This document shows positions 13,961-62,645 of a DNA stretch of 64,000 nt, piece by piece. The notes beneath the pieces are model-generated. The model did not search any database, was not told where the DNA came from, and worked only from the letters and a program-made list of their open reading frames with translations. The translations under genes were made by a program, and so were the position numbers. Each line of letters opens with the position of its first letter. Positions within the stretch are counted from its first letter, which is position 1. The DNA comes from Eledone cirrhosa (lineage: Eukaryota), in contig OZ024744.1 in assembly GCA_964016885.1 (NCBI GenBank), forward strand, positions 44,764,001-44,828,000, in the 5' to 3' direction.

Positions 13961-14040
<80 letters not shown>
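13961..14040. repeat. (AAT)n target tract between the E2 5' end and the Dong D1 5' end
   Basis: Nearly pure AAT at a head-to-head junction. Confidence 0.97.
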
Positions 14041-14042
<2 letters not shown>

Positions 14043-14755
14043 TACGTGACTGATAGTAAGGAGCCAATGCTCAGAACTGTACTGAAGGAGAGGACAATAG
14101 ACCAGGGGATGTCCAAGGAGGAAATAACAACAAGGAGAAGGAGCAGCCTTCAGGAAAAATCCCTTCATAGTACCTTCTTTGAGAAAACTGAATTCAGAGA
14201 TACACAGACATGGAACTGGTTGAAAAGAGGAGACCTTAAAACGGCTACAGAAGGAATGTTAATGACTGCGCAAGAGCAGGCCTTCAAAACGAAGTGGTTG
14301 AAACACCATATTTACAAGGAGGAGGCTAGCCCACTGTGCAGGATCTGTGGAGAGAGAGAGAGGAGACTGTGGCTCACATTGTATCCGAGTGAAAAAAGAT
14401 CGTGCCTGATTGTGGATGTGGCCTGCCCATTCGACACGAGAGTGCAAGAGAAGGAGAGGGAGAAAATTAACCGATACCAGGACTTAAAGTGGGAGGTAAA
14501 AAGGATTTGGAACTGCCATGAAGTCAAAGTGGTCTCGATTGTCATAGGCACACTAGGTACTATCTCAAAAAGTTTCCAGAGATGGATAAAGAAAATTGGC
14601 CCCGCCCCGCTTTTTGGAACACTTCAAAAGGCATGATTGCTGGGAACAGCAAGAACTCTCCGATACGTCCTGAATATCTGAGGCTGCAGGTAGTGGCTTG
14701 ATATCCATTTCAACAAACTTTCCAGTTAACTAACATCAATGAGTGAGACTCAAAG
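14041..14755 (+). mobile_element. Dong/R4-type element D1, 5'-truncated 3' fragment
   Basis: Matches the C-terminus of ORF 59132-62524 (SKEPMLR..TEGMLMTAQEQA..CRICGE..IVDVACPFD..EKINRY) and its 3'UTR. Internal deletion of about 230 bp at about 14391. Ends in AAT repeats. Confidence 0.93.
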
Positions 14756-14799
14756 AATAATAATAATTATTACTTTAAGAAAACGCACATGGTGGATAT

Positions 14800-17700
14800 A
14801 TATCGTTATGTAATCGCTCGCGTAAGTCTTGATTTTTACTTATTTAAAACAACTGTGATAGAATAATTCTTATTACAAATGAAATATAAGATTACAGTTT
14901 TGATCCTCAGCAGGCGACAACGCATCACATTACGGCATAGGGCCCCAATATTTAATATTAATTTGGGATCAGAAATGTTATAGTCAAAAAAGAGAAAAAT
15001 GACTAAGTGGACAGACAAGCAAATAATTTCACCACCAACACCACCACCAACACCACCACCGCCACCATCACCACTACCACGCCAAAAACACTAGTCAAGT
15101 TACCTCAACTTCTATTTCTACTTCAAATTCAACACCATCACTACAGTACTACGATCACATCACCACCACCACTGCCTCATTATCGCTACCGCCGCTATTC
15201 TCTCCCACTACCTCCTGCTTAGACAGGCATCATAGTACTCCCACTAAATGAGGAAGGCATCAAAAGATATAAATAGACTGATTTGGTGACCCGGTCAAAA
15301 AATCAAAAAATCAAAAATCAAAATCAAAACAGCACAGCAGCAACGAAAAACGTAAAGAAAAGAAAAAAGAAAAGAAAAACAAACAGACAGACAGACAAGC
15401 AAAAAACTAAGTCAGACATTCAAACATTACATTACAATGAAACTTATGCTTATTTGTGTTTTTTTTTTACCTATTTGTTTGTTTGTTTATTTATGTTCGT
15501 CTACAGCGTGATAGTGCCAGGCTAAAATCACCGAGGGTGATCAAATCGCCGGTGGTTATGTAACCATACATTCACCAATCCTCGATAAGAGTGTTTCAAA
15601 GTCGAACCTAAACAGTTCGAATAACGGTGAAGTGGAGACTGTAATGTCATGTGACTCTCACCCAGCAGGTGCTCCCTGGCTCAGCAGCAGGTACCTGGCT
15701 GTCAACCAAATACTGCTTATGTCGGAGGAAGAAGATGGAAAGGGACCAGTACCAACTGGACGAAAGAATTGAATAGAACTGTTATGCAATGTTACCTGAA
15801 GAGTAACTCTAGGGAAAAAGGCTAGAGGAAACGAATGCATAACATCTGGAACGAGATTGGTCTATTTAAATTAGATGAACAAAAATTGGCCGGGCAGGCT
15901 CGGGTAATAAGAACTAATGGGTGGATAAGTGAGCTGGAACTGGAGGAACTGAGCAGAGAGATTAGGTTGGAAATGGAGAGTGGAGTATGCCAGGCAAACG
16001 AGCCAGTGGGAAATGAAGGTGAAGAGGTCGAGAGAACGGAGGAACCATCCGAAGCAGATAATGATCTGAATGCTGAAATAAATAATACCTGGAACAAAGA
16101 TACGGCCATTGAGGAGATGAATGCCTACGGGCTAGGACAAGATTTGGTTGATATCCTAAACTTAATGGTAGATGAATTGAACAATGATAGTGGGGAACCT
16201 ATGAACCTAAGATTTATAGACAGGAAAAAGTTAAAAGAAACAACAGCTAAGGTAAACAAAGTCATCCCATACCTTGAGGCGAGGAGCCTTCACCAGTGCA
16301 ACAATATCCTCAAAGCAACAGCAAATGCGGTGAGGAAATTACTTGGCATAAAAACGAGAGGAAACAACAAGCATGAAAGATCAGAACCTTGGTGGAAGAA
16401 ACGACTGAATGGTCAAATCAGGAAAATGAGAAATGACATTGCAAAGCTTGAGTCCCTACTGAATGAGACACTAAAAAACATAGACACTAAAAATAGTCTG
16501 GAAATAAAGTACAAAACTAGGAGGAAAAGGCTACATATAATCATAGAGGAACTGAAGCAACGCATTGTAGCAAAGAGTGCAAAAATTAGGCGATACGAGA
16601 GCAGAGTCAGTCAGTATAGACAGAACCGCATGTTTGATAACAACCAGAAGATGTTGTTTGGACAGCTTGAAGGGAAAGAAAGAGGCAACGACTTGATCCC
16701 TGAGGCGGAACAAACTAAGACATTCTGGAGAGGAATATGGGAGCAGGATGTTAAACATAATGACCAGGCAGTGTGGATTGAGACAGTACAAAAGGAGATT
16801 AGTGAACAGGCACACCAACAAACTGATTTGAGTATCACAGTTGAAACTCTTAAGGGACAGGCCAAAAAACTAACCAACTGGAAAGCACCAGGCCCAGATG
16901 GTGTGCAGGGGTATTGGATTAAAAATGTAACATCCCTCCACCCAAGACTGACAACCATGTTCAATGACTGCTTGATGTCAGGTGAGTTACCAGAGTGGTT
17001 GACAAAGGGTACCACAGTTCTGGTAATGAAAGACCGAATCAAGGGTAATGATGTTACCAACTATAGACCTATCACATGTCTGTCCGTAATGTGGAAACTG
17101 TTGACAAGCATTGTGTCTGAGGAAATCTACCATCACCTCCACACAAACAACTTGTTACCGGACGAACAGAAAGGATGCCGAAAGAAGTCCCGTGCTACAA
17201 AGGACCAGTTACTTATTGAAAAGATGGTAATGAGGAATTGCAAGAGGCGACACACTGATCTTGCCATGGGATGGATAGACTACAGAAAGGCATTTGACAT
17301 GGTGCCTCATTCCTGGATCACCAAAAGCCTGGAGATCTTCAGGGTGGCGGATAACATCAGACAGTTGCTAGGCAGGAGTATGGGGCCCTGGGAGACAGAG
17401 TTGACATCAACTGGAGGATCCTTGGGAGGCGTGAAGATGAAGAAGGGTAAATTGAGCAGAAGCAACGGAATCCAGGTACCAACAGGTGAGATGATAAAGG
17501 AAATTGACACTGAAGAAGGATACAAGTATTTGGGTATTCTGGAGGCTGATGACATCAAGAACAAAAAAATGAAGGAATTGATAAGATCTGAATACATACG
17601 GAGAGTAAGGAGCGTATTAAAATCACATCTGAACAGTAGGAATGCCATAAGTGCAGTAAATTCCCGAGCTGTGTCTATTATTAGGTACAGTGCGGGAATT

Positions 17701-18819
17701 CTGAGATGGAATGTTGCTGAACAAAAAGAAATGGATAGGAAGACTAGGAAGCTATTGACTATCTACAACATGTTCCACAAGAGGAGTGATGTCGATAGAC
17801 TCTACTTAAGGAGATCTGAAGGTGGAAGAGGTCTTATCAGCATAGAGGACTGTGTTCAGATGGAGAAAAACAACCTACATGACCGATAGTAAGGGGCGAA
17901 AGCTCAGAATTGTACTGAAGGAGAGGACAATAGACCAGGGATGTCCAAGGAGGAAATAACAACAAGGAGGAAGGGCAACCTTCATGAAAATCCCTTCATA
18001 GTACCTGCTTTGAGAAAACGGAATTCAGAGATCCACAGACATGGAACTGGTTGAGAAGAGGAGACCTTAAAAAGGCTACAGAAGGAATGCTAATGGCTGC
18101 GCAAGAGCAGGCCCTCAAAACGAAGTGACTGAAACACCATATTTACAAGGAGGAGGCTAGCCCACTGTGCAGGATCTGTGGAGAGAGAGAGAGAGAGGAG
18201 ACTGTGGCTCACATTGTATCCGAGTGTAAACACCTAGCCCAGACCAACTATATAGGCTGGAGACATGATGTAATGGGCAGGGTGATCCAATGGCACCTAT
18301 GCAAAGTAAAAATTTACCACATTCTGAGAAGTGGTATGAGCATAAGCCAGAGTCGGTGATAGAAAACGATCAGGTGAAGGTGCTGTGGGATTTTAGGATA
18401 CAGACGGACAAGAAACTAGAACACAATATACCTGACATGGTGGTTTTGGACAAGGAAAAAAGATCGTGTCTGATTGCAGATGTAGCCTACCCACTCGACA
18501 CGAGAGTGCAAGAGAAGGAGAGGGAGAAAATTTACCGATACCAGGACTTAAAGTGGGAGGTAAAAAGTATTTGGAACTGCCCTGAAGTCAAAGTGGTCCC
18601 GATCGTCATAGGCGCACTAGTTACTATCTGAAAGAGTTTCCAAGGATGGTTAAATAAAATTAGTCCAGCCCCGCTTTTTGGAACACTTCAAAAGGCATGC
18701 TTGCTGGGAACAGCAAGAACCCTCCGATACGTCCTGAATATCTGAGGCTTCAGGTAGTGGCTTGATATTCATTCCAACAAACTTTCCAGTTAAATAACAT
18801 CAATGACTGAGACACAAAG
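14800..18819 (+). mobile_element. Dong/R4-type element D2, near full-length and defective
   Basis: 5'UTR homologous to 57430-59130 (AATCGCTC.CGTAAGT; CACCATCACTACAGTA; AAGTCAGACATTC). ORF remnants about 15632-18744 with stops and frameshifts. The 3'UTR ends in (AAT)n at 18820-18837. Confidence 0.93.
15835..17889 (+). pseudogene. Dong D2 ORF remnant (684 aa) lacking the RT catalytic core
   Basis: Colinear with the D3 ORF but missing 89 aa that include QGDSLSPLLF and FMDD. Frameshifted before the zinc finger and RLE. Confidence 0.9.
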
Positions 18820-18837
18820 AACAATAATAATAATAAT

Positions 18838-21597: not shown

Positions 21598-24500
21598 GCC
21601 CTCCACGTAGCGGGTGTTGACAGCAGATGGAACCCCTGACCATCGGAGTGCGTCCCTTCTACAAAAACCGAAAGAGCAAACGCTCCAGTGCAGTCAGGCG
21701 AGGCTTAGGACAAGGCACGACGCTCAGGCGGTAGTAGATGACGGACGCGATGTACGCATTCACCACCTCTGTTCGACCTTTCAGGGATAGCTTCATCTCT
21801 GCCTATTTCTGGGTGAGAGAAGCCACCCTGCTCGTCACCCCGTCCCAGTTTTTGTCTGTCTGGGTGTCCGGACAGAATCAGACTCCTAGCAATTTAACCG
21901 GTCCGTCCGTCTAACGCCCGACGACGCTGTTGGACGGATGGACCTGCCTCTCCAGGTGCCGAGCTGCAGGCCCACAGACTTTTCCTGGTTGATCATTGCT
22001 CCTGTCACCACTTCGTATTCTCTTAGTGTAGTGCCGATCGCCTCGATATGTTTGGCGTTCGACACCACTACAGTGACATCGTTCGCATATGCTGACACGG
22101 ATCTTCCGCATTCTAGTTCGCGCGGGATCCCCCTCAACTGTCTCCAGTTTGTGCAGTAATGGCTCGAGAGTCAATACGTACAAGAGGGACGAGAGGGGAT
22201 ATCCTTGGCGGACCGAGCGCATGATGTTGAACGGTTCCGAAAAGTGACCGTTCACTCTCACCACAGAGCAGATGTCGCTGTGCATGGCAGCGATCCAGCC
22301 TCTGAAGACGGGCCAGCCGCCCTCAGGACTGTCGATAAGTAACGATGGTCGACCCTATCGAAGGCTTTCGACTGATCTAAATTTATCAAGGACCCACCCG
22401 TGCCAGGTTCCCTAGCTACCCTCTCTACGATGTATCGCAAGAGGTAGAGATTGTTGTGGATTGATCTGTCGGGAATGGCGCATGTCTGCGCCTCTCCCAC
22501 CAGACCACCAACGACAACCGCCAACCTCTTTGCTGGCACCTTGGCCAATATCTTGAACTCTGTGTTTAGCAGAGTTATGGGCCTGGAATTATCTATGTTA
22601 TCCCCCTTGTCCGGATCCTTTCTCAGCAGCACCACCGCTCCACGGCTCACAGAGCTTGGAATTCTCCCGCACTGTTGCCAGTTGCACTAGACGTCCGCCA
22701 AGAGGCCTCCGGACAAATCTGGCATCTGTACGTAAAGTTCATAGGGCAGACCATCCAAACTAGGCGATTTACCCCTTGTGCAGCCTGTCATTGCCTCCCG
22801 TACTTCAACTGCTATTATCGGCCTTTCGCAACACTCCACCTCAGTGGCCGAGGGCCGCGGCAGTCCGTCGAGGTAGACACTAAAGTCCATCCCTCGATCC
22901 GGCCCGCCGCTGCCCTGAAGAGCTGAGCAAAATGTCGCTGAAAAGCTTCACTCATTTGCCCGGGATCGAGTAGCATGCGCCCGTCGTGGTCCACCAAAGA
23001 CCGGATCGTGGCTTTGTTGCCACGACGCGCCACCGCCACTCGGGCGCATTGAACGACTTTCGTCCCCTCGTGTCTGAGAGCACGCACCCTAGCTCTGACA
23101 ACGCAGGCTTCGTGCTTTGCATTGAAGAATTGGTCAAGGGCCAATTTCGCCGCAAGTACGTCGGTCGCGATGCCTTTGCAAAGCGCTTCGTCTAATTTTC
23201 AAACTAATTCTCCCTCGGCTCTATTTTTCTCTGTTACTAACGCTTTACTAAACCTAATGGACTCTATTCTAATCGCTCTTTTCAGGGCAAACCACCATTT
23301 GTTGTTGTCAAAGGCCCCTGAGAACACCCGCTTAACTAATTCGCTAATCCGGTCTCTGTAAGCTTTGTGCGTTGTTAACGACGCATTTAGTTTCCAGTAA
23401 CCAGGTCCCTGTCTATGAAGCCTATCTAAGTCAACAACATAGATCACGAATTCGTGGCCCGTGTAGTCGTCTATTTTGAATTGTGAACAGCCTATGCTAG
23501 ACCTATCTATTTCCCTACAAAATATCCTATCTAGATATGAACTGGATGATCCGATGATCCGATGATCCGATGATCCGATGGCACATTCGGGAAATCCACA
23601 TGGCACCTGTCAGACAGTTGAAACCGTCAGAGCAGGTTTGCGAGGCTTTTACACCCTCCTCCCCTATCTGCTAATGCCACACAGTTCCAGCGTGCATCTA
23701 AGATCCCGTTCCAGTCGCATACTAAACTAAAGAGCGGGACGTTCCAAGAAAGGTCTCCAGACGCCGGAAGAAATCAGGCCGCCCTGCTCCTGTCAGGGAA
23801 TAGACGGCCACTACCCTGAAAGCTTGGCCGTCTCCGTTGGTCACGTCCAGCACCACCAACTTACCTTCTGGGTCCAGGAAGATGGCCCGCATGGTGATAT
23901 CCAAGCCTCTCCGAAAAAGCACATCCCCCTCCCCGATCCCGGACGGCTGGGAGATGCCTATACATCGTAGCCGCCGAAGACGGTGCGAAGGCTCGTGCTT
24001 CGGAGATTCTGGTCTCGCTCATGGCCAACACTTCTATGTTTAGTGACCTGAGGTCGTTGAGCAGGTGGCCCTGCTTCCATGACGACCCCAGGCCACGTGT
24101 ATTTATACTGCCTATTCTGAGTAAGGTCATGTTGAAAAGGAGTGGAAAAAGATGGGAAAGACACTTACCTCACTTCTCGTTGAGGAAGGATGGTTTCTCC
24201 ATCCTTTTCACTGTTTGTGGCCTCCTCAGGAAGGATGTCCTTATAAATCCTCCTGGAGAGTGTTTGTCGGAAGACTCCGATGTCTTTGGGGAATTTTAAT
24301 TTTATTGTTGTGTACGTTTTCTGTGTGATGCGAGTGATTTATGTGTGTGGGTGGTGTGAATTTTTGGGGGTATTGTGTAGTTTTTCTGTGATGCTGGTGT
24401 TATGTTGGATGTAGTGTAATAATTGGTTGTTGTTCAAATTTAATGCTGTGTAGTGTGTATCGTTTTGGTTGCTTTGTTTTGTTTGCGTTTGTTGTGGGTT

Positions 24501-26030
24501 TGTTTCTGTTTCGCTTTTTTGGTGACTTTTGTGGTGTTGGTGATGGTGGTGTTCGGGTTAATGATGGTGATGGTGTTGGTGTTTGTGGTGATGGGGCTGG
24601 TGATACTGGTGTGGGTGGTGGCATAGCTGTCTTAACTTTATTTGTTTGTTTCCCCCCTGCATTTTGTTTTTAGAGGGCGTAGGAACGGGATTTTTGTTTT
24701 TTGGGTTCTATTCTTTCTTTTTTCGAGATACAGTTTCCTACTCCTCCTCGTCGTCACAGTCTGTCTCCAGTTGTGATAGGTCGGGGAGTGAAAACTCCTC
24801 CACAGGCGTTGGTTTTGGTTGTGGCGAGGTGGATGGTCTGGCGCGGTAGGTGGTGGTGGTGTTGGGTTTGCTACTGTTGCTGTTACAGTTGCTGGAGTTG
24901 TTGCTGCTACAGTTGCTTCTGTTGTTGTTATTACAGTTGTTGCTGCCATTTCTGCTGCTGGTTTTGATGGTTGAGTCACTGGGGTGGGTAGGAGAAATGG
25001 CCTCAACTGTTAGCCTGAGGGCAGAAAGCCTTTAGGTGGGTTCCTTCGCGCGAACGACACACCTAGGTCTTCTACCCTTAAAGATTACGGTGAGGTGGCT
25101 GCCGTCATTGAGGTCTATCACCTCTGGAATTTCCTCTTTGTATTTTTGTTCCGCTTGGATCAGGAGCTCCATCCCAGATCCCGACCAGTTCTCCCGCTTT
25201 TCTTTTGTTACCTCAATTATTTTAGTGTTGGCCACGAAGTCGGCGAGGACGGCAGCCTTAATCAGGGAATTTCGTTGGCCGGCGGAACGTGGGTCACCCT
25301 GATCTTCACCAGTCTCTGACCACAATAGCTTGGGACGAGTGTGAACTCGTCACTTCTTAATGGTGCCATGGCGTGCTCTCTGCCTTCCTGTGGGGTTCCA
25401 AACAACACGTCCACGGTTCTATATTTCTACCCACGTCTGATGTGGCGTTTTTTCGCCCACACATGTCCTAAAGCTTTTTGTATCTGGGACTCGGATGCCC
25501 GTTCCACTCGGCGTGATTTTGTGTTTATCGCGTCCGATATGACACGGTGCATAGGCGCCGATGCTAGAATTTATTAGATGGGGCGGGGGTGAGACTGACC
25601 CTGTACCCATCTTTTTTTACCATTCGCTTGGCTTCATTCAATTCATCCTGGCTTACCTCGATTGTGTCGCTTTTCTTGGCTGCTTTGGCAAAAGACACAT
25701 TTTGTTTTGAGCTGGTGTTGATGTTGTTGTTGTTATTCTCATTGTTGTTGCTGTTGCTGTTGTTATTGATATTTTTAGGATGTTAGTCTGTTGGAAACAG
25801 CAGATTTGTCGTCCATGTTTTTTTTTCAAAGAAATATTTTGTTTGATAAATAAAAAGTTTAAATTTGGGGCTCAAGGCCTCAATATTATTGAGTGTCTTT
25901 TCAGAAAGCAATATATGTGAACTTATAAATACATAACAACAAAAGGTTTCCATGACTGGCAATTTGAAACAACTGAAAACAACAAATCTTTGTGGAGCTC
26001 ACGATAATACAATTTCCTACGTAGGTCGCC
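21597..26030 (-). mobile_element. Tx1-type copy E4 (family A variant), 3' end deleted
   Basis: ORF2 fragments up to ATG 24130 and ORF1 fragments 24164-25817. The 5' end GGCGACCTACGTAG is shared with E9 and E10 and abuts (AAT)n at 26031-26051. Confidence 0.92.
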
Positions 26031-26051
26031 AATAATAATAATTATAATAAT

Positions 26052-26213
26052 TGTTTCTACTTTTGGCACAAGACCAGCAATTATCCAGTACATTACTGGT
26101 ACTTTATTTTATCGACCCCGTAAGGATGAAAGGCAAAGTTAACCTCGGCGGGATTTGAACTCAGATCGTAAAGCTGGAAAGCATGTCTGACCCTCTACCA
26201 ATGCTGCCAATTC
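26052..26213 (-). mobile_element. tRNA-derived SINE (octopus-type), degenerate
   Basis: Minus strand shows an A-box-like TGGCAGCATTGG (26198-26209), a B-box GTTCAAATCC (about 26151-26160) and a conserved core CTTTGCCTTTCATCCTTACGGGGTCGATAAAATAAAGTACCAG. The 3' end CTTGTGCCAAAAGTAGAAAC runs into (ATT)n. Confidence 0.8.
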
Positions 26214-29200: not shown

Positions 29201-30455
29201 GCGTATACATCGTAGCCGCCGAGGATCAGTGTGAATCTCGTGCTTCGGAAATTCTGGTCTCGCTGATGGCCACCTCATCTATGTTTAGTGACCTGAGATC
29301 GTTAAGCAGGTGGCCCTGCTTCCAAGATGACCCCAGGCCACGTACATTTATACTGCCTATTCTAAGTAAGGCCATTTTGGGTAAGGAATGGAGTAAGTGA
29401 GAAAGGATCACCTACCCTGATCGTGTGGGAAAGGGTCAGTTGAACCGTCCCTTTGGCTGGTCATGGGTGTCTCCAAGATGATGTCGGTGTATATCCCTTT
29501 GGTAACAAGGCCTTTTGGATTTGAGACCCCGTGGCTCTCTCCACCTGATGTGAGATTCTGCTTACGGTGCGGTAAGTCACCGTCCGTAGCTGCTGGTCCT
29601 TGAAAATATCGGGTGGAGGTTTCAGGGAAACTCTATTGGCGCTTCTTGTCACCATGGCCCTTGCGACTGCCATCTCCTCCTCTGTGACTAACACTGTTTC
29701 GATATTTCGGGTGACACCTGCAAAAGAAGTGGTCCCTTTTTCAGCAGCACCACTATTGCTGCCGCTACTGCTGCTACTGGTCTTGCTGGTGGTGCTGAGA
29801 TCGTTGTTACTGGTATTGATGTCATTGTTGTTGTTTTCTTTGGTACTGTTGTTGCTGTTACTGTTGTTGTGGCTGTTGTTATTATTGATTTTGTTGATAC
29901 TGTTGCTGTTATTACAGTTATTGTGGCTGTTATTGTTTTTGTTGATACTGTTCCCACTATTATTGTTGTTGTGGCTGTTGTTATTGTAATTGTTATTGTC
30001 GTTCTCGACCTTACCGTTGTTGTTTTTGTTGTTGCTATTGTTATTGTTGGTGTTGTTTGTGTTAGTAATATTTGGTAATTTTAAATCTGTAACGATATCA
30101 TTAAAAATGATATTGTTCCTCTTTTCTTTCGTAATATTTTCTTTTATATTTACCTTCGCTAGAACGCTGTCTTGTTGATATGTTGACAAAGTCTCCCTCT
30201 CCCTGTGTTGTCTGACAGAGCTCTCTCTCTTTCTTGTGTTATCCATTTTGAAAGAAATTTTTTTCAAATAATTTTTTACATAATACGACACGCCATAAAG
30301 GGGTGCCGTATTATTTACGAGTGAACCCATGTATATGGTGGGTCACTTCTTCTAAACCTTTATCAAGTTTAAAACTTGAAAAGGTTAAGAACAGTTGAAA
30401 ACGAGGTATACTGTTGAAAAAAACTGGAGCCGATAAGAAGCGTGGCTTCACCTTC
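26214..30455 (-). mobile_element. Tx1-type copy E5 (family B), both ends present, several internal deletions
   Basis: Family B 3'UTR. ORF2 fragments up to ATG at about 29375 (MALLRIGSINVRGL). The ORF1 N-half 29461-30330 (Asn-rich; SFAGVTRNIETV..VERATGSQIQKAL) is joined to its C-terminus by a deletion. The 5' end abuts (AAT)n at 30456-30470. Confidence 0.9.
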
Positions 30456-30470
30456 AATAATAATAATAAT

Positions 30471-36048: not shown

Positions 36049-36069
36049 AATAATAATAATAATATTAAT

Positions 36070-36371: not shown

Positions 36372-36373
<2 letters not shown>
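36070..36373 (-). mobile_element. Tx1-type copy E7 (family B), 3'UTR-only 5'-truncated insertion
   Basis: Highly similar to 18838-19120. Flanked by (AAT)n at 36049-36069 and 36374-36427. Confidence 0.93.
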
Positions 36374-45453: not shown

Positions 45454-45506
<53 letters not shown>

Positions 45507-45760
45507 GGTCTAATGATTACTTATCGCAATTCCCAGGAAACCCGCGTATAGGAGAAATACAAAAGATAGTACTAATGGGAACTGCCCATATACTAAGGAA
45601 GATTAGGTCAATATAAGTACATCACAAGTCTAAACACTAAATATGCATGTGTGAGTATGTATGTTCTTTCTTGAACATGGCGGACCTTGTTGTCTCTTGA
45701 GGTCACTAGTTGTGACTTGGTGATAACTCGTATGAACATAAGGCAAGATAAAAGCAACTG
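45507..45760 (+). mobile_element. 3' fragment of a second Dong/R4-type family (D4)
   Basis: Translates SNDYLSQFPGNPRIGEIQKIVLMGTAHILRKIRSI* (stop at 45614-45616), homologous to the D3 end LQKACLLGTARTLRYVLNI*. It has a different 3'UTR and (AAT)n on both sides. Confidence 0.82.
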
Positions 45761-45778
45761 TAATAATAATAATAATAA

Positions 45779-51592: not shown

Positions 51593-51593
<1 letters not shown>
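45779..51593 (-). mobile_element. Tx1-type copy E10 (family A), full-length and frameshifted
   Basis: Family A 3'UTR. ORF2 fragments 46017-49427 are colinear with E8 ORF2. ORF1 fragments 49462-51386 include CVVCGEGTHLRAFC. The 5' end abuts (AAT)n at 51594-51656. Confidence 0.95.
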
Positions 51594-51656
<63 letters not shown>

Positions 51657-51658
<2 letters not shown>

Positions 51659-54600
51659 TATCATTTATTAGCCACATGGGCCGACATACAGGGAACAATA
51701 CAAAAGACTGGGACAGTGGGGTATTACAGAAAAATAGAGTAAACAATATTAATCACAATAACAAAGAAACAAGAAAATTACACCAAGAAAAAATTCCCCA
51801 ATAGGGGGGATGACCACCCAGGGTTCGCTCAGGTATCCCACCAATCCTGAACGACACAACGCTTCGGGAGCACCCTGGAAGGGCACCCCCTCTCCTCCTC
51901 AAATTTACCTACCTACAGCCGCATGACAAGAGTAGGCCCACTCACACGGGCCATTCTCGCCACATTCACCCACATTTCAGCAAATGTACTGGGGGCAGCA
52001 CTTCTCTCTCCACAGTCACCTTTCTTTCCAAGTGAAACTTGAAAAAGTTGATGGCCGAAGAGAAAAGTGTCTGTCTTCACATCTTTCAACCTCGTCCACC
52101 ATACAACCTCTTTCGCTACTGCCACCAGACAGAGGAAAGTTGCCTGCCCTTCCTGGCCAAAAGAAGGCGGCGGGTCGATCTTCACTATGGACTTGGCCGA
52201 TAGACGGGCAGGTCCGTCTGACAGCACTTGCGTGCATGTAGAGTTTATCTCGAACCGGCAGTGCCCCCCGGTAACACTGCCAATCGAGGGATTTTTGGAA
52301 ATTATCCATCGTCTTCAGCTCGAAAGTCCTCCGGTAAAGACTGGTTAGTTCGACTTCGTTGATTCCCAGAGCCTCTCCGAGTGCGTCGTCGCACTTGCCC
52401 ACCACTAATCCTCTATAGAACTCGAGAGTGGAAGTTCCACTGACCGCATTGCCCGCCTGGTAGAGGGCAGTGAGTGCCTGGCAACATTCCAGATGCCATT
52501 CACCCAGTCTCGGTCTCTTCTTGACCCAGGACTGCAACTCAGTCAAAGAAACGAGCTGCGGAAAGGCCCATCTGACAAAGGGCGACCACACCTGTTCACC
52601 GTTTAGGCAGAATATCTGGAGATGCCGCAGCCTCAGCAAGTGCCTGCGCATCATTAGCCACGGCATGCCCAGCCCTCCACGTAGAGGGTGCTGGCAGCAG
52701 ATGGACCGCCTCACCAGCGGAACCTGACGCCTCCACAAGAATTTGAAGAGGAGCCGCTCCAAGATGGCGAGGCGCGTACGGGGCAAGGGACGACGGTCAG
52801 ACGGTAGTAGTTCGCCACCTCAGCCCGACCTTTCAGTGATAGCTTCATCCCAGCCCATTTCTGGGTGAGACTGGCTACCCTGCTCGTCACCTCATCCCAA
52901 GTCTTATCCACCTGGAGGTCTGGCCCGAACCAAACCCCTAGAAACTTTACCGGTCCGTCCGTCCAGCGCCTAACGACGCTGTTGGACGGCATGGACTTGC
53001 CTCTCCAGGTCCCGAGTTGCAAGACTACTGACTTTTCCGGGTTAAGTTTTGCTCCCGTCAACCTTTCATATTCCTCCAATAAGTTGCCGACCACCTCGAT
53101 TTCTGAGGTGTCCGACACCATCACAGTAATATCGTCTGCATAAGCCGAGACAGCCTTTCCGCGTCCCGGTTCGAGCGGGATGCCCTGCAACAGCTCCAGC
53201 TTCCCCAGTAAAGGCTCGAGAGTACAGAAGGGAGGAGAGAGGGCACCCTTGACGGACCGATCGGGAGACCTGAAACGGTTCCGAGAGGAGGAAATTAATT
53301 TTGACCACCGAGCAGGTGCCGCTGTGCATTGCAGCGATCCAGCTTCTGAAGACGGGGCCGAAGCCAGCCGCCTTGAGGACAGCCTCCAGGTACCGATGGT
53401 CGACCCTATCGAATGCTTTCGATTGATCTAAATTGATCAGAGCCCAACCGAAGCCAGGTTTACACCCTACCTTCTCTATGATGTATCGCATCAGGTGGAG
53501 GTTGTCGTGTATTAACATGGTTGGGATTGCGCAAGTTTGCGCCTCCCCAACCAAATTCCCGACGACAAGCGCCAACCTCTTCGCTAACACCCTGGCCAAA
53601 ATCTTAAACTCTGTGTTAAGCAGAGTTATGGGCCTGAAATTGTCTAATGTGTCCCTCTTGTTCTCGTCTTTCCTTATCAGCGTCACTACGCCCCGGCTCA
53701 CAGAACTGGGAGTACTCCCGTTTTGTTGCCAATTGCAGTAGAGGGCTTCGAGGAGGTTGGAGAACAAGTCTGGCATATTTACGTAAAACTCGTAGGGCAG
53801 ACCATCCAAACCGGGTGACTTGCGCCTCATGCAGCCGACAAGGGCATTCTGAATCTCGGCTGAAGTGATTGGCCTTTCGCAGCGCCCAGCGACAGCCGTC
53901 GAGAGTAGCGGCAAGCCATCGAGGTAGGGACTGAAGTCCGCCACCATCTCTGACCCGCCACTTCCCCCGAACATGCGAGCAAAATGTTGGCGAAAGGCTT
54001 ATCACATCCGCTTGGAATCGCTCAGCTCGTGTCCGTCTCGGTCCGTCAAAGACCGAATCGTGGTTTTATTACCAAGCTGCGCCACTTCCATGCGGGCCCA
54101 TCGAACAGCTTTGGTTCCCTCGTTTCTCAGAGCACGCGCCTTAGCTCTGACAATGCAACCTTCGTGTTTCGCATTTAAGAAATGGTATAATGCCATTCTC
54201 GCCGCTAGCACGTCAGTTGCAATGCCACTACCAGTAGCCTCGTCTAACTTATATACCAACTGCCCCTCCTTTCTATTTTTCTCTAACGCTACTTCTTTGC
54301 TAAACTCTATCGACATTACTCTAATCTCTCTTTTGAGAGCCCCCTCACCCCCCACCATCTATTGTTGACGTCTCCCGCTGTCAACTTTTCCTTAACTAAA
54401 TTGTTGACCTGGTCCCTGTAAGCCTTACGTACCGGAAATGACATGTTTAGCTTCCAGTAACCAGGTCCTAACCTACGCGTCTTATATAGATCGACCATAC
54501 AGATCACCAACTTGTGACCTGAATAGGCGACCGTTTCAAAACGTGGACAGCTTACACTATTTCTGTCTATTTTCCTAATGAATATCCTGTCTATATACGA

Positions 54601-57366
54601 TCTAGATGACCCTATGCGGTTAGCCCAGGTCCACACTGGCGCATTAGGGAAATCTAGTCGGTACCTGTCAGGCAGTTGGAACTGGCTGATTAGGTTCTTG
54701 AGGGATTTGCACCCCACGCTCCTATGGATACTCCCACACAGTCTCTGCGTGCGTCTAAGATGCCGTTCCAGTCCCCGCTAACAGTAAAGGGCGAGACGTG
54801 CCCAGAAAGGCTTCCAGGCGTCTAAAGAGGTCCGGCCGTCCTGCCGCAGTAGGAGCATCGACGGCCACCAGTCTAAAGGCACCACCTTCGTTATTGTTCA
54901 CGGCCAGGACCACCAACTTCCCGTCCGGGTCCCAGAAGATCGAACTTACCTCGAGATCCAGGCCTTTCCTCAACACTGCCACCCCGCCTCCCATTCCCGG
55001 CCGGCTAACAGACGCAAAGATCTGATAGTCGTCGAAAATGGGGTGTAGTGCGCTCATGTCGGAAATCCTGGTCTCGCTGACGGCAATTACATCCATTTCT
55101 AGAGACCTGAGGTCATTGAGCAGGTGACCCTGCTTCCAGGACGATCCCAGGCCTCGAACATTTAAACATCCTACTCTTAATACGGCCATGTTGGCAGGTT
55201 AAAAAGAGAAAGAGGAAAGGTTTACTTACCTTCCGGGCTCTTGTGAAGGTCGGGTTGTTCGACCTCCCTAGTTCGTGGGGTTTCTTTTGGGAACCCCTTT
55301 AAAGGTCTTGAAGTTGGTTTTACGTTTGGGGTTCCCACGTCCCGAGGAAAGCTGTTTCGTATTTCTTTGTATAATTCGATCGACATTCGCACCAGAACCA
55401 AATCTTCCGGCACGCGAAATGTGCTCGATTTATAAATTTCCCCCTCTTTTTGTATATTTTCACTTCGTGCTACGAGGGCCATCAGTTCCTTGTTGGCCCT
55501 CCTGACGATCACGAAGTTTTGTATATTTTGTTGGTGTGATTTTATTTGTTTGCGTGGCTGTGGTGGTGATAGTTTTGGTGGTGTTGTTTCGGTTGTGTCT
55601 GTGTTTGTTGTGAGTGCGGTGTCTGTGGTTTCAGATGCTTGTCTGTATATTTGTTCTAGCGTCTGTTTAGAGGTTGTTTGTGTTTGGGGGATTCTGGTGA
55701 TGGTGATGGTGGTGATGATGTTGGTGTTATTGGAGAGATGTTTGCGTGGGTGGTATCTGCGTTTTTTATTGTGGGTGATTTTGTGCTTTGTTGAGTTATT
55801 TTTTTCTTTTTGTGTTTCCTTTTTTTGTATTTTGGGGGATTTGGGTTTTCCCTCATCTTCACTACTGGTAGATGAGGGGTCTGTGTCTGTAAGTGTGTCT
55901 GTATGTATGTTTATGGTTTTATTGGTGTGTGTATTTTGGGGGGGAGGGGGAATGTGACAGCTTTCCTCGTTTCCCTCTTGGGTGGTCAATGTTGGTGGTG
56001 GTCTTTCTATTGTTGTTGTTGTTGGTTGTGGTCCTCGCCCCGGCATCGGCTGCAGTGGAGCCTTTCGACCCCTTGCCTCTTTCAACAGTTGAGGGCAGAA
56101 GGCTCGCAAATGGGTTTTTTCCCCACAAACAAAACACTGCGGCCTTTTGCCTTCGGTCATAATGTGAATGGCCGTCCCATTCTGAAGGCGGATGTGGTCT
56201 GGGATTGTCTTCACATTCTCGGGCCTGATCTGGGGAAGTATATCCAGGTCAACCCCGGACCAGTCCTTTCTGGCCGTTCTTGTCACTTGTATAGGGACTG
56301 TATCCGTCCCCTCCACAATCACACATCCAAGAAGCCATCACATGTCAAGTCCTGGTGGGATTCTGGGAATGCGGAGACGGGCCGTTCTTTTTCCCATGTG
56401 GGAGGGGTACATTATGACCTTGCTGGTTTTGCAAGGAGTCATAGCGTGTTTCATAGCGAGGGCTTCTGACTTGAACAACACTGAAATGGTGCCGTACTGT
56501 CTGCCCCTCTCTATGTATTCGGTGTCTTCTCTGATGCACCTCAGCGCGACTTCGACATCTTCTTGTGGGATTAAAGCTGCCCTTTTGGTTTGTGCTGAGA
56601 TGCATCTATAATGCACCGTTCTGCGCCCCACTGCCTCAATAGCTTCTACCGGGACAGTTAAGTTTGCCCATGTTTGCTCTTGCTTGATGAGCTTCCATGC
56701 CTGGTCCAACTTTTCATCTTTGTTTGAGAGGTCCATGTTGAAGCATGGCCTCTTTTTTGCTGCTGCCGCAGCGAAAGTGTTCTTCTTGTTTTCGTTGGGG
56801 GGTGTGGTTGGTGTTGTTCTTGTTGGTGTTGTTGTTAGCACTGTCGCTGTTATCATTGTTGTCTTTGTTGCCACCGTTGTTCTCGGTGCAGTTGGTATTG
56901 TTGCTGTTGGTGTTGTCGCTATTTGTTTTCATGTTAGTGGTGTTGATATTGTTGTTACATTTGTTATCTTTTTTTTTTGTTATCTGTATTCTCGTTGTCG
57001 CTGTTACTGTCATTTTTTTCAAAATTAGAGTTCTTATTGGTATCATTGGTGTCTTTGTTTACCTTGTTTGAGGTGGTGTTTGTGCTATCAATGTGTGTTA
57101 ATTTCGCTGTAGCGCTCCTCTCAACTTCTACGTCGTTGTCGCACGACAGCCGACATATCGCTGGGGACGTGGCTCAGCCATGTTTTTTTTCTCCGTAAAT
57201 TTTTTAACATGTAAAAAAGTTCAAATATTTGGGCCAAAAGACCTTTCACAGGGCAAAGTCTAAGGGTTTATATCCCTTAAACAACAAGAAATATTTAACA
57301 ACAAATAATTTTAACAGGCAAATAAAGCGACTTACTGGGACTGAGAAAAATACGTCCGATTAGACC
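51657..57366 (-). mobile_element. Tx1-type copy E11 (family C), full-length and frameshifted
   Basis: Family C 3'UTR. ORF2 fragments 51913-55189 (MAVLRVGCLNVRGL; YADD). ORF1 fragments 55222-57181 (CFVCGEKTHLRAFC). The 5' end abuts (AAT)n at 57367-57426. Confidence 0.94.

Positions 57367-57426
<60 letters not shown>
57367..57426. repeat. (AAT)20 target tract between the E11 5' end and the Dong D3 5' end
   Basis: Pure AAT at a head-to-head junction. Confidence 0.97.
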
Positions 57427-57552
57427 CGGAGGTCATGAAATCGCTCCCGTAAGTTTTGAATTTTTAACATATTTAAACCATTTGTGAAATAACAACTCTT
57501 AGCACAAATGCTACGTAAAGCACCCGGCTTGAGCCCCAAAAAATTCGGACCC

Positions 57553-58829
57553 AAAATATATTGTTATAAGGCTCAAATATTCAAATATTCAACTTTGTAT
57601 TGTACACTGTATATCCCAAAAAAAAAAAAAAAAATGGCTATAAATGGAAGAAGAACCCCTCCCCTCCTCTCCTCTGGCTACACTATATAGGACAGCTAAA
57701 CTCACCAACACCAGAAACTAGATACACCACCCACCCCATCATATGTGTACACTAAACACAACAGCCAGATAACGACACATTTTCACCTTCACCGCCACCG
57801 CTCACTACGGCCATCATTACCACCACTATCCCATCACCGCCGCCACCACCCCTTGACTCCGCTACAGCACCATCACTACAGTAATACGGTCACATCACCG
57901 CCACCACTGCCTCGGTATCGACATCACCACCACCACTGTCTCAGTATCGCTAACGCCGCCAGTCTCCCACTTCCCTGCTGGCTGCTACTCCCACATTATA
58001 GAATTCCTACTACTAACAAAGAGGAAGGCATCAAAATATATAGATAGACCCAAAAGAAAAAAGAAAAAACAAACAACAAAACCAAAGCAGCACAGCAACA
58101 ACAGCAAAAAACGAGAAAAACAAACAGAGAAAAACAAAAACAAAAAAAAGAAACCCCAAAAACGTAAAGAAAATATATTGTTATAAGGCTCAAAACGTAA
58201 AGAAAATATATTGTTATAAGGCTCAAATATTCAAATATTCAACTTTGTATTGTACACTGTATATCCAAAAAAAAAAAAAAAAAAAAAATGGCTATAAATG
58301 GAAGAAGAACCCCTCCCCTCCTCTCCTCTGGCTACACTATATAGGACAGCTAAACTCACCAACACCAGAAACTAGATACACCACCCACCCCATCATCTGT
58401 GTACACTAAACACAACAGCCAGATAACGACACATTTTCACCTTCACCGCCACCGCTCACTACGGCCATCATTACCACCACTATCCCAGCACCGCCGCCAC
58501 CACCCCTTGACTCCGCTACAGCACCATCACTACAGTAATACGGTCACATCACCGCCACCACTGCCTCGGTATCGACATCACCACCACCACTGTCTCAGTA
58601 TCGCTAACGCCGCCAGTCTCCCACTTCCCTGCTGGCTGCTACTTCCACATTATAGAATTCCTACTACTAACAAAGAGGAAGGCATCAAAATATATAGATA
58701 GACTCAAAAGAAAAAAGAAAAAACAAACAACAAAACCAAAGCAGCACAGCAACAACAGCAAAAAACGAGAAAAACAAACAGAGAAAAACAAAAACAAAAA
58801 AAAGAAACCCCAAAAACGTAAAGAAAATA
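57553..58829 (+). repeat. Near-perfect ~625-bp tandem duplication in the D3 5'UTR
   Basis: 57553-58175 is repeated at 58203-58829 with few differences and a different poly(A) length. There is an extra ~33-bp duplication at the junction. Confidence 0.93.
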
Positions 58830-59131
58830 AGAATGAAGAGAGAAGCAGGCGGACGGACAGAGAAGAGGGGGGAAAAAGTAAAACTTAAAAAACTAAAACT
58901 AAGTCAGACATTCGAACACTACATTACAATGAAACTTATGCTTATTCATTTCTGGGGCCCTTTCTGCCTGTGTGTTTGTTTGTTTATGTGTGTTCGTATA
59001 CAGCGTGGTGATAATGCCACACAAGGGCCAAGTGGGATGGCGGACCCACAGATGGCTATGTAAACATACATTCGCCAATCCTCGATAAGAGTGTTTAAAT
59101 ATCGAACATAAACAGTTCGAATAACGGTGAA

Positions 59132-62100
59132 ATGGAGACTAGAACGTCATGTGACAGACTCTCACCCAACAGGTGCCCCCTGGCTCAGCAGCAGGAACCT
59201 GACTGTCAACCAAATACTGCTGATGTTGGAGGAAGGAGAAGAAGGAAAGGGGCCAGAACCAACTGGACGAAAGAATTGAATAGAACTGTTATGCAATGCT
59301 ACCTGAAAAGTAACCCCAAGGAGAGGGGCTACAGGAGACGGATGCATAACATCTGGAACGAGATTGGTTTATTTAAATTAGATGAACAAAAATTGGCCGG
59401 GCAGGCTCGGGTAATAAGAACTAATGGGTGGATAAGCGAGCTGGAACTGGAGGAACTGAGCAGAGAGAATGGCTTGGAGATGGCGGGTGTAGTATGCCAG
59501 ACAAGCGAGCCGGTGGGAAATGAAGGTGAGGAGGTCCTGAGAACGGAGGAACCACCCGAAGCAGACAATGATCTGAGTACTGAGATAAATAATACCTGGA
59601 ACAGAGATACGGCCACTGAGGAGATGAATGCTGACGGGCTAGGACAAGATTCGGTTGACATCCTAAATTTAGTGGTAGATGAATTGAACAATGATAGTGG
59701 GAGACCTATGAACCTAAGATTTGTAGACAGGAAAAAGTTAAAAGAAACAACAGCTAAGGTAAACAAAGTCATCCCATACCTTGAGGCGAGGAGCCTTCAC
59801 CAGTGCAACAATATCCTCAGAGCAACAGCAAATACGGTGAGGAAACTACTTGGTATAAAAGCGAGAGGAAACAACAGACAAGAAAGAGCAGAGCCGTGGT
59901 GGAAGAAGCGACTGAGTGGGCAAATCGGGGAAATGAGAAATGACATAGGAAAGCTTGAGTCACTACTGAATGGGACACTAAAAAACATAGGCACTAAAAA
60001 TAAACTGGAAATAAAATACAAAACTAGGAGTAAAAAGCTAAATATTATCATAGAGGAATTGAAGCAACGCATTGTAGCAAAGAGTGCAAAAACCAGGCGA
60101 TACGAGAACAGAGTCAGTCAGTATAAACAGAACCGCATGTTCGACAACAACCAGAAGATGCTGTTTGGACAGCTTGAGGGCAAAGAAAGAGGCAACGACT
60201 TGATCCCTGGGGCGGAGCAAACTAAAACATTCTGGAGAGGAATATGGGAGCAGGATGTTAGACACAATGCCCAGGCAGGGTGGATTGAGACAGTACAGAG
60301 GGAGATCGGTGAGCAGGCACAGCAACAGACTGATTTGAGTATCACAGTTGAAACTCTTAAGGGACAAGCCAAAAAACTAACCAACTGGAAATCGCCAGGC
60401 CCAGATGGTGTGCAGGGGTATTGGATTAAACATCTAACATCCCTCCACCCGAAGCTGACGGCCATGTTCAATGACTGCTTGGTGACGGGTGAGGTGCCAG
60501 AGTGGTTGACAAAAGGTACCACAGTTCTGATAATGAAAGACCGAATCAAGGGTAATGATGCTACCAACTATAGACCTATCACATGTCTGCCCGTAATGTG
60601 GAAACTGTTGACGAGCATTGTGTCTGAGGAAATCTACCATCACCTCCACACAAACAACTTGTTACCGGACGAACAGAAAGGATGCCGAAAGAAGTCACGT
60701 GGTACAAAGGACCAGTTGCTTATTGATAAGATGGTAATGGGGAATTGCAGGAGGAGACACACTGATCTTGCCATGGGATGGATAGACTACAGAAAGGCAT
60801 TTGACATGGTGCCTCATTCCTGGATCACCAAAAGCCTGGAGATCTTCAGGGTGGCGGATAACATCAGACAGTTGCTAGGCAGGAGTATGGGGTCCTGGGA
60901 GACAGAGTTGACATCAACTGGAGTATCCTTGGGAAGCGTGAAGATCAAGAGAGGTATCTTCCAGGGAGATAGCCTGTCCCCTCTGTTGTTTGTCCTTGCC
61001 CTGATGCCCTTGACCATTATGCTGCGAAAAGTGAGAGCAGGATACAAGTTGGGAAGGGGAGAGCTTACCATCAATCACCTCCTCTTCATGGACGATCTTA
61101 AGCTCTTCGGGAAAAGTGAGAAGGAGTTGGATGTGCTTGTTGACACTGTCCGTATTTTCAGCAGTGATATATGTATGCAGTTTGGTATTGGTAAATGTGG
61201 AGTCACTGTGATGAAGAGGGGTAGGTTGAGCAGAAGTAACGGGATCCAGATACCAACAGGTGAGATGATAAAGGAAATTGACTCTGAGGAAGGATACAAG
61301 TATTTGGGCGTTCTGGAGGCTGATGGCATAAAGAACAAAAAAATGAAGGAATTGTTAAGAACTGAATACATTCGGAGAGTAAGGAGCGTATTGAAGTCAC
61401 ATCTGAACAGCAGAAATGCCATAAGCGCAGTAAATTCCCGAGCTGTGTCTATTATTAGGTACAGTGCGGGAATTCTGAGATGGAATGTTGCTGAACAGAA
61501 AGAAATGGATAGGAAGACTAGGAAGCTATTGACTATCTACAACATGTTCCACAAGAGGAGTGATGTCGATAGACTCTACCTAAGGAGATCTGAGGGTGGA
61601 AGAGGTCTTATCAGCATAGAGGACTGTGTTCAGATGGAGAAAAACAACCTATACAAATACGTGACCTATAGTAAGGAGCCAATGCTCAGAGCTGTACTGA
61701 AGGAGGGGACAGTAGGCCAGGGGATGTCCAGGGAGGAAATAACATCAAGGAGGAAGAGCAGCCTTAAGGGAAAACCCCTTCATAGTACCTTCTTTGAGAA
61801 AACTGAATTTAGAGATCCACAGACATGGAACTGGTTGAGAAGAGGAGACCTCAAAAAGGCTACAGAAGGAATGCTAATGGCTGCGCAGGAGCAGGCCCTC
61901 AAAACGAAGTGGTTGAAGCACCATATCTACAAGGAGGAGGCCAGCCCACTGTGCAGGATCTGTGGAGAGAGAGAGGAGACTGTGGCTCACATTGTGTCCG
62001 AGTGTAAACACCTAGCCCAGACCCACTATAAGGGCTGGAGACACGATGTGATGGGCAGGGTGATCCACTGGCACCTGTGCAAAGTAAACAATCTACTACA

Positions 62101-62524
62101 TTCTGAGAAATGGTATGAGCATAGGCCAGAGGCGGTGATGGAGAACAATCAGGTGAAGGTGCTGTGGGATTTTAGGATACAGACGGACAAAAAACTGGAA
62201 CACAATAGACCTGACCTGGTGGTTGTGGACAAAGAAAAAAGATCGTGCCTGATTGTGGATGTGGCCTGCCCGTTCGACACGAGAGTGCAAGAGAAGGAGA
62301 GGGAGAAAATTAACCGATACCAGGACCTAGAGTGGGAGGTGAAAAGGATTTGGAACTGCCATGAAGTCAAAGTGATCCCGATTGTCATAGGCGCACTGGG
62401 GACTATCTCCAAAAGTTTCCAGGGATGGTTAAAGAAAATCGGCCCCTTCACGCTTTTTGGAACGCTTCAAAAGGCATGCTTGCTTGGAACAGCAAGAACC
62501 CTCCGATACGTCCTGAATATCTGA
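59132..62524 (+). CDS. R4/Dong-type polyprotein: RT + CCHC finger + restriction-like endonuclease (1130 aa)
   Basis: N-terminal EQKLAGQARVIRTNGWISELELE. RT motifs NWKSPGPDG, YRPITCL, IDYRKAFDMVPH, QGDSLSPLLF and FMDD. CRICGEREETVAHIVSEC and RHD. RLE motifs RPDLVVVD..IVDVACP..EKINRY. Confidence 0.96.
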   Translation: METRTSCDRLSPNRCPLAQQQEPDCQPNTADVGGRRRRKGARTNWTKELNRTVMQCYLKSNPKERGYRRRMHNIWNEIGLFKLDEQKLAGQARVIRTNGWISELELEELSRENGLEMAGVVCQTSEPVGNEGEEVLRTEEPPEADNDLSTEINNTWNRDTATEEMNADGLGQDSVDILNLVVDELNNDSGRPMNLRFVDRKKLKETTAKVNKVIPYLEARSLHQCNNILRATANTVRKLLGIKARGNNRQERAEPWWKKRLSGQIGEMRNDIGKLESLLNGTLKNIGTKNKLEIKYKTRSKKLNIIIEELKQRIVAKSAKTRRYENRVSQYKQNRMFDNNQKMLFGQLEGKERGNDLIPGAEQTKTFWRGIWEQDVRHNAQAGWIETVQREIGEQAQQQTDLSITVETLKGQAKKLTNWKSPGPDGVQGYWIKHLTSLHPKLTAMFNDCLVTGEVPEWLTKGTTVLIMKDRIKGNDATNYRPITCLPVMWKLLTSIVSEEIYHHLHTNNLLPDEQKGCRKKSRGTKDQLLIDKMVMGNCRRRHTDLAMGWIDYRKAFDMVPHSWITKSLEIFRVADNIRQLLGRSMGSWETELTSTGVSLGSVKIKRGIFQGDSLSPLLFVLALMPLTIMLRKVRAGYKLGRGELTINHLLFMDDLKLFGKSEKELDVLVDTVRIFSSDICMQFGIGKCGVTVMKRGRLSRSNGIQIPTGEMIKEIDSEEGYKYLGVLEADGIKNKKMKELLRTEYIRRVRSVLKSHLNSRNAISAVNSRAVSIIRYSAGILRWNVAEQKEMDRKTRKLLTIYNMFHKRSDVDRLYLRRSEGGRGLISIEDCVQMEKNNLYKYVTYSKEPMLRAVLKEGTVGQGMSREEITSRRKSSLKGKPLHSTFFEKTEFRDPQTWNWLRRGDLKKATEGMLMAAQEQALKTKWLKHHIYKEEASPLCRICGEREETVAHIVSECKHLAQTHYKGWRHDVMGRVIHWHLCKVNNLLHSEKWYEHRPEAVMENNQVKVLWDFRIQTDKKLEHNRPDLVVVDKEKRSCLIVDVACPFDTRVQEKEREKINRYQDLEWEVKRIWNCHEVKVIPIVIGALGTISKSFQGWLKKIGPFTLFGTLQKACLLGTARTLRYVLNI

Positions 62525-62645
62525 GGCTGCAGGTAGTGGCTTGATATTCAATCCAACGGACTTTCCAGTTAACCAACATCAATGACTGAGATTCAAGGAA
62601 TAACAATAACAATAATAATAATAATAATTTTAAAACAATTACAAA

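Follow-up and report, generated by a model that had tools for sequence, protein, structure and literature searches.

The DNA considered here is a 64-kb window from the octopod Eledone cirrhosa (GCA_964016885.1, contig OZ024744.1, forward-strand positions 44,764,001 to 44,828,000); all positions refer to this whole window, and all results on the array within it describe this one locus. From position 3979 to 62628 the window is made up of non-LTR (lacking long terminal repeats) retrotransposons that follow each other without gaps, with ordinary AT-rich flanks on either side (Table 1). The array holds 11 pieces of long interspersed elements (LINEs) of the apurinic/apyrimidinic endonuclease (APE) type, all on the minus strand, four pieces of Dong/R4-like elements of the restriction-like endonuclease (RLE) type, all on the plus strand, and one insert resembling a short interspersed element (SINE), on the minus strand. 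Tracts of (AAT)n separate the elements. The anatomy of the elements, their polarity and the presence of tracts at their 5' and 3' ends are directly observed, and they support the conclusion that both classes use this repeat as an insertion site at this locus, with fixed and opposite polarity.

The orientation of the two classes is uniform. With the intact APE ORF2 and ORF1 (open reading frames 2 and 1) and the intact RLE ORF as tblastn probes, every APE match was on the minus strand and every RLE match on the plus strand, the only matches across classes being weak ones between reverse transcriptase (RT) domains; in a self-BLAST all 108 matches of at least 60 nt were on the same strand. These searches uphold the counts and strands given in an initial annotation of the DNA, made from its letters (11 of 11 APE pieces minus, 4 of 4 RLE pieces plus), except that one of the RLE pieces, a fragment of 254 bp, comes from a second RLE family and that the independent APE units number nine, not 11, since pieces A and B (at 9306) and C1 and C2 (at 21597) are joined without a tract, at non-homologous positions with 1–2 nt of microhomology. 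The two fusions are products of deletion or template switching; off-target insertion was rejected for them, as the missing halves are not found on the far side. The same annotation had begun the array at 13961, with two of the 11 APE pieces to the left of that point, and its element list lacked the SINE-like insert at 26053–26209. For nine units the uniform APE orientation has a two-sided p of 0.004 (0.001 with 11 pieces) and the class-by-strand split (9+4 units) a p of 0.003, values which, because the copies share ancestry, test the consistency of families and not independent origins.

The tracts lie where the elements meet. All 15 pure tracts of at least three units have AAT on the plus strand, where there is no ATT run, and none lies outside 3979–62628; two of the 15 belong to one junction. 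Since all would stem from one repeat, their common strand is not additional evidence. Of the 28 element termini, 25 lie within 12 nt of a tract, whereas the part of the window no more than 10 nt from a tract amounts to only 1.2%. The other three are the 3' end of copy A, next to a degenerate AAC/AAT run, and the 3' end of copy D and the 5' end of the SINE, which meet at a single ATT. Every surviving 5' end (APE 9/9, RLE 4/4) is at most 3 nt from a tract, including those of the 5'-truncated copies F, d1 and d3. The eight untruncated APE 5' ends all start with G, six directly after ATT and two after ATTA. At all nine APE 3' ends ATT begins 4–7 nt past AATAAA, A runs after AATAAA reach 4 nt at most, and a poly(A) tail of the mammalian L1 kind is absent (0/9).

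Three junctions in the array are head-to-head, with tracts of 83, 53 and 60 bp (at 13960, 45454 and 57367). At such junctions neither neighbour has a 3' end that could have supplied the repeat as a tail, which argues that the repeat is a target and not just a tail; an origin of the tracts from tails only was rejected on these grounds, as a 3' tail explains the tracts at 3' ends only. The two tail-to-tail junctions reported earlier were both recovered, at 18823–18837 and 45761–45778, and have tracts of only 15 and 18 bp. It is as if both classes left most of the repeat on their 5' side, a pattern drawn from three junctions against two. The convergence of the two classes on a shared target, as first proposed, thus holds at this locus, on the strength of the 5' junctions and the head-to-head tracts, and gives way as a novelty to the precedent of Keno and Utopia (below).

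The best explanation, to which a probability of about 0.7 is assigned, is that two independent lineages, acting on opposite strands, inserted again and again into a single genomic (AAT)n microsatellite by target-primed reverse transcription (TPRT). Alternatively, the APE endonuclease could be a loose, L1-like nickase of TpA or AT-rich sites, and (ATT)n a 3' tail made by the element, which pairs with the nicked strand and merely favours existing AAT tracts, mostly the tails of other copies; specificity would then be partial and the array an extreme hotspot. TpA is the bond cut by the L1 endonuclease, and either strand of the repeat has TpA steps. The array is bounded on each side by a 3' end with its tract, and the SINE combines an (ATT)n tail with one ATT on its 5' side, as such an enzyme would allow. 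A loose nickase is nonetheless unlikely, because APE 5' ends lie at tracts whether truncated or not, and because no APE or RLE copy interrupts the body of another element in about 58 kb of such DNA. Tract length also speaks against it, if weakly, with two junctions set against three: it is lowest where elements meet tail-to-tail, and the head-to-head junctions rank with the longest.

The array might instead have arisen mainly by block copying, through unequal crossing-over, read-through 3' transduction or template jumping, in which case its polarity would reflect few events. The tract-less chimeras A/B and C1/C2 could be template switches, and a member of the I family followed by one of the J family recurs (A-B and I-J). 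However, A and I are 93% identical and their neighbours B and J only 80%, an unequal divergence in the sole recurring neighbour order which argues against segmental duplication, and on which that origin was rejected. Moreover, block copying could not create the five mixed-class junctions, so that it seems very improbable as the main source of the array. Equally little weight is given to a partial assembly artefact, in which contigs ending in the same microsatellite were chained, the polarity of each class being real and the interleaving not. Although no listed contig spans the stretch, the window contains no N, and six junction tracts are only 12–18 bp, too short to drive a join; the copies also carry private decay and microhomology deletions, and ordinary flanks lie on both sides.

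Table 1. Elements and tracts of the retrotransposon array, in window coordinates
Feature	Positions	Strand
Left terminal tract: pure (AAT)7, then degenerate AAC/AAT run	3979–4032	+
APE LINE copy A: decayed, without its 5' end (tract-less junction with B)	4033–9306	-
APE LINE copy B: member of the B/E/J subfamily, lacks its 3' part; 5' end next to tract	9307–13959	-
(TAA)n tract, 83 bp; head-to-head, APE 5'/RLE 5'	13960–14042	+
RLE (Dong/R4-like) copy d1: 5'-truncated, internal deletion	14043–14755	+
(AAT)4 tract between two RLE copies	14756–14767	+
RLE copy d2: almost full length, with an internal deletion and 5 stops; homologous to d4 at its 5' end	14768–18822	+
(AAT)5 tract, 15 bp; tail-to-tail, RLE 3'/APE 3'	18823–18837	+
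APE copy C1: 3' part; tract-less join to C2	18838–21597	-
APE copy C2: 5' part; 5' end abuts tract	21598–26030	-
(AAT)n tract, slightly degenerate; SINE 3' tail	26031–26052	+
SINE-like insert, about 160 bp	26053–26209	-
APE copy D: internal deletions	26213–30455	-
(AAT)5 tract, APE 5'/APE 3'	30456–30471	+
APE copy E: both ends present, heavily decayed	30472–36048	-
(AAT)5 tract and a few AT-rich bases	36049–36069	+
APE copy F: 5'-truncated to about the 3' untranslated region (UTR); truncated end abuts tract	36070–36372	-
(TAA)18 tract	36373–36427	+
APE copy G: intact; ORF1 frame 40132–42279 with CCHC knuckle, ORF2 36677–40096	36428–42444	-
(AAT)9 tract	42445–42471	+
APE copy H: both ends present, ORF2 mostly deleted	42472–45453	-
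(AAT)17 tract, 53 bp; head-to-head, APE 5'/RLE 5'	45454–45506	+
RLE fragment d3, 254 bp: last 35 codons and 3' UTR, second family	45507–45760	+
(TAA)6 tract, 18 bp; tail-to-tail, RLE 3'/APE 3'	45761–45781	+
APE copy I: full length, decayed	45782–51592	-
(TAA)21 tract	51593–51656	+
APE copy J: retains both ends; 2 stops and frameshifts	51657–57366	-
(AAT)20 tract, 60 bp; head-to-head, APE 5'/RLE 5'	57367–57426	+
RLE copy d4: intact single ORF 59129–62524	57427–62599	+
Right terminal tract: AAC/AAT, then (AAT)6	62600–62628	+

The ORF2 of the intact APE copy G encodes 1139 aa in the order APE-RT-CCHC, with Pfam matches to Exo_endo_phos (3e-14), RVT_1 (1e-28) and zf-RVT (8e-8) and with the APE catalytic motifs present. 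Its nearest solved protein by phmmer is human L1 ORF2p (E 3e-52, residues 5–854), and R2 is matched at E 1e-21 over the RT only. An N-terminal APE, an RT and a C-terminal CCHC finger in a protein nearer to L1 ORF2p than to R2 are the marks of the L1 group (L1/Tx1). A gag-type CX2CX4HX4C knuckle in ORF1 is a feature of the Tx1 clade; it is present in G, H, J, E, I and A and was not found in the decayed B and C2, and H also gives a weak match to zf-CCHC_4 (E 0.23). In a quick tree of 57 rows that included no named Tx1 reference, and from which two short rows were dropped, G groups with P0001–P0011 at 100% support in the Shimodaira–Hasegawa-like approximate likelihood ratio test (SH-aLRT); look-ups of RT clusters for its relatives returned unnamed clusters only and so no clade name. 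Thus, of the Tx1 label given to these elements at the outset, membership of the L1 group is borne out by domains and phmmer, and Tx1 itself is a putative assignment from domain anatomy. The domain anatomy supports the clade names of both classes as probable assignments.

The APE copies form about three subfamilies, 68–95% alike. The hairpin-loop region of the endonuclease shapes APE specificity, and it varies little across the three subfamilies and is different in relatives at the 39–48% level. Copy G is itself a composite: up to 40180, its ORF2 side shares ~95% identity with A and I, and its ORF1 and 5' UTR (40181–42444) are only distantly related to theirs, the ORF1 core being about 42–53% identical at the aa level, as after a swap of ORF1 and promoter. 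Contig mapping with four runs, which yields depth only and leaves out the tract region 42439–42484, shows depth falling at 40100 by a factor of about four in runs X1 and X8.

The RLE copy d4 has a single ORF of 1131 aa with the arrangement RT-CCHC-RHD-PD..D..K (motifs at residues 653, 942, 971, 1027, 1043 and 1059), has no APE in Pfam, and finds its best solved relative in R2 (E 1e-30). Both this single-ORF anatomy without an APE and the sense-strand (TAA)n that flanks each of the four copies on either side are expected of Dong/R4 elements. The 5' ends of d2 and d4 are homologous, with a score above 1000 of 1000 shuffles, and are therefore true termini. The 35-aa peptide of d3 has 24 matches at E<0.01 among 360 stored proteins, all 24 in the RLE set and all 24 at the C-terminus, which at the sequence level marks d3 (45507–45760) as the 3' end of a second RLE family. 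Clade names are carried by none of the 120 listed among 1581 RLE relatives found. One of the proteins examined, P0089, was considered as an RLE-APE fusion and rejected, being an internally duplicated RLE ORF. A further mark of the Dong/R4 clade is a 5' ribozyme resembling that of hepatitis delta virus; Rfam, which may lack a fitting model, gave no match in the window at the gathering score and no ribozyme match at E<=5 around the 5' ends of d4 and d2. The 5' region of d4 contains a 627-bp tandem duplication, 98.6% identical, at 57553–58829 (+). Internal deletions with microhomology at their breakpoints occur in copies of both classes, d1 (14396), d2 (17450) and H (42690), the microhomology in d2 being imperfect and up to ~15 nt long.

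The APE elements end in a fixed order: a small hairpin, AATAAA and (ATT)n. In nine LINE 3' ends RNAalifold finds a 7-pair hairpin upstream of AATAAA. When the SINE is added to the alignment, 91% of cells pair, four pairs have double changes, and the number of paired cells exceeds that in each of 500 shuffles and in every slid control. The SINE shares the polarity of the APE LINEs, has the same kind of 5' junction (ATT|G) and an (ATT)n tail, and keeps 4/4 inner stem pairs and the loop of the LINE hairpin. Its head has motifs like the A and B boxes of RNA polymerase III promoters, recognised by eye only, and no tRNA match in Rfam. Its tail finds its best match at the very 3' end of four LINE copies (C1, D, E and F); this is not so for A, G, H, I and J, nor for any of the four RLE ends. 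The SINE is thus a possible non-autonomous partner of the APE LINEs, a lead at this stage.

In TPRT the strand that is nicked first sets the orientation of the new copy. Because of this, priming would be on the ATT strand for the RLE elements and on the AAT strand for the APE ones. Under repeated TPRT into one microsatellite, the Dong/R4-like elements would gain TAA on their own sense strand from priming on the (ATT)n strand, and the L1/Tx1-group lineage ATT on its own sense strand from priming on the (AAT)n strand. Most likely, the APE RNA reads through AATAAA into a downstream (AUU)n, which pairs with the 3'-OH of the nicked (AAT)n strand. Such pairing could fix both polarity and register without poly(A), even if the enzyme were to nick either strand. 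The conserved 3' hairpin is likely to be the signal by which the RNA is recognised, and a SINE carrying it may be mobilised in trans to the same sites. Each insertion would split a tract, the next target would lie between earlier elements, and the array would grow without gaps. The A/B and C1/C2 fusions would be later deletions.

Several points weigh against this reading, among them the shared ancestry behind the p-values given above. The opposite first-nick strands are deduced from the geometry of TPRT, and all of the evidence comes from a single locus. At two junctions the repeat is poor, the 3' end of A lying beside a degenerate run and the 5' end of the SINE being separated from the 3' end of D by one ATT only. 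The match between the SINE and LINE tails has a p of 0.001–0.05 for four of the nine LINE ends and is not significant for the other five; equal or higher scores also occur inside other copies, and the minimum-energy fold of the SINE is another hairpin. The hairpin was also derived from the same sequences in which it is scored, and the GC/AU swap among the LINEs may be one event. Finally, an alignment scan of metagenomes found 71 distant loci (best segments 21–48% identical; none from a single-protein scan), and none of these 71 has a perfect AAT/ATT run of at least 12 nt, so a preference for the repeat is not demonstrated as old or lineage-wide.

An insertion leaves two tracts where there was one, so that new copies come to lie next to older ones. 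It had also been proposed that each class creates sites for the other. To form the five mixed junctions, one class or both must have inserted next to the other; the proposal is thus supported in one direction at best and falls short for the reverse order. The position of the intact d4 next to the decayed J suggests that Dong came second, into a tract bordered by an APE element. A wider scenario, possible if rather doubtful as a whole, is that an octopod lineage of the L1/Tx1 group has dropped poly(A) priming, knows its own RNA by the 3' hairpin and primes through read-through (AUU)n on the AAT strand. It would thereby share (AAT)n with Dong, which uses the opposite strand, and would drive an abundant family of (ATT)n-tailed SINEs. 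All three would make up a microsatellite sink that renews itself, each insertion creating a target for the others, and so build transposable-element hotspots in octopuses.

Parts of this picture are already known: the sharing of a target across endonuclease classes, and opposite polarity in one repeat. The comparisons that follow are with published systems as described in excerpts of the papers cited. Among APE and RLE elements of different origin, Keno (APE, Tx1 clade) and Utopia (RLE, NeSL clade) occupy the same site in the U2 snRNA gene (PMC4640811), and are alike the present classes in being unrelated endonuclease types that converged on one site. Their 3' flanks are identical and their polarity therefore the same, unlike that of the array here; their target is a gene, and one shared array is not described for them in those excerpts. 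SART and TRAS insert in opposite orientations in one telomeric repeat and form mixed arrays (PMC10088271), the parallel drawn initially. However, both belong to the R1 clade (APE type) and are telomeric, whereas here the endonuclease classes differ and the repeat is an internal microsatellite.

The TAA specificity ascribed to Dong beforehand is likewise on record, in a listing that places it under APE-type elements (PMC3812793). Dong belongs to the R4 lineage, and in Bombyx mori has TAA upstream on its sense strand (PMC3774820). The RLE elements here resemble the Dong elements of the R4 clade (B. mori, A. gambiae, B. glabrata) in the single RT-CCHC-RLE ORF, the TAA target and the upstream sense-strand TAA, and differ in being interleaved with an APE lineage and in representing two RLE families in one array; the named Dong elements were compared by description only. 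Microsatellite targets are also known in Tx1: (TC)n for Kibi, (TTC)n for Koshi and (TTCC)n/(TTTC)n in crocodilians, a target preference being called there when more than 20% of flanks share a repeat (PMC4494074). Set beside that >20% threshold, the repeat is found at 9/9 APE 5' ends, at this one locus. Like those families, also compared by description only, the present APE elements appear to be microsatellite-specific, but their target is (ATT)n, which is absent from the targets given in those excerpts, is shared with an RLE element, and lies in an octopod. Among SINE-LINE pairs in which recognition of the 3' end is stringent, a 3' stem-loop common to both partners has been described in the L1 clade, in one monocot lineage and a green alga (PMC3747384); those pairs end in poly(A) where the ends are stated, whereas here both partners end in (ATT)n and the SINE is a single copy.

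The joining of cross-class target sharing with opposite polarity looks new, as do the ATT target of an L1/Tx1-group lineage, its tail without poly(A) and its possible SINE partner. The literature search found no published ATT-specific Tx1 element or mixed Dong/Tx1 array, although Repbase, Dfam, Kojima and Fujiwara 2004, figure labels and supplements lay outside it and may hold one. The excerpts of PMC9115989, PMC8967140, PMC4758252 and PMC5035012 contain nothing on an ATT target. In Octopus vulgaris, Dong-R4 (5 families, 1129 insertions) and L1-Tx1 have been recently active, SINEs make up 11.6% of the genome, and 288 windows of 100 kb are LINE-dense hotspots, reported with no cause given (PMC13282606); the main text of that paper contains no target analysis. 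The array would add (ATT)n to the list of L1/Tx1-group targets, and offers both a mechanism for such hotspots and a candidate autonomous partner for octopus SINEs. It also provides a natural side-by-side comparison of the choice of priming strand by APE and RLE elements, in one genome and on one repeat, and makes it testable whether polarity is set by the strand choice of the endonuclease or by the pairing of RNA and primer.

The family is high-copy. Part of the stretch is found in 20 of the 24 public sequencing runs listed, and half or more of it in eight of the 24, with no RNA run listed among those that contain it; matching contig records number 60,093 in run X1 and 80,892 in run X8. A gene-model fragment from Octopus sinensis matches at 64% and a protein from Argonauta hians at 58%. 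Two short proteins labelled Escherichia coli, P0224 and P0236, match the APE ORF2 at 64% and 74%, and probably reflect contamination of these records by animal DNA. Scans of viral sequences found no relatives, and 24 prokaryotic matches and one viral match to the 3'-end pattern were dismissed as chance, the longest alignment being 35 nt.

Outside the array, two (ATAC)n arrays lie at 2230–2318 and 2930–3917, each followed by the same ~35-nt motif on the plus strand. The 610-bp unit between them (2319–2929) has ATAC tracts on both sides, and may be a third element associated with a microsatellite. The flanks also contain two decayed fragments of a different kind of LINE, which we take to be RTE-like, at 1580–2210 and 62930–64000 (minus strand); they are related to each other (about 40% at the aa level) and have no bordering AAT tracts.

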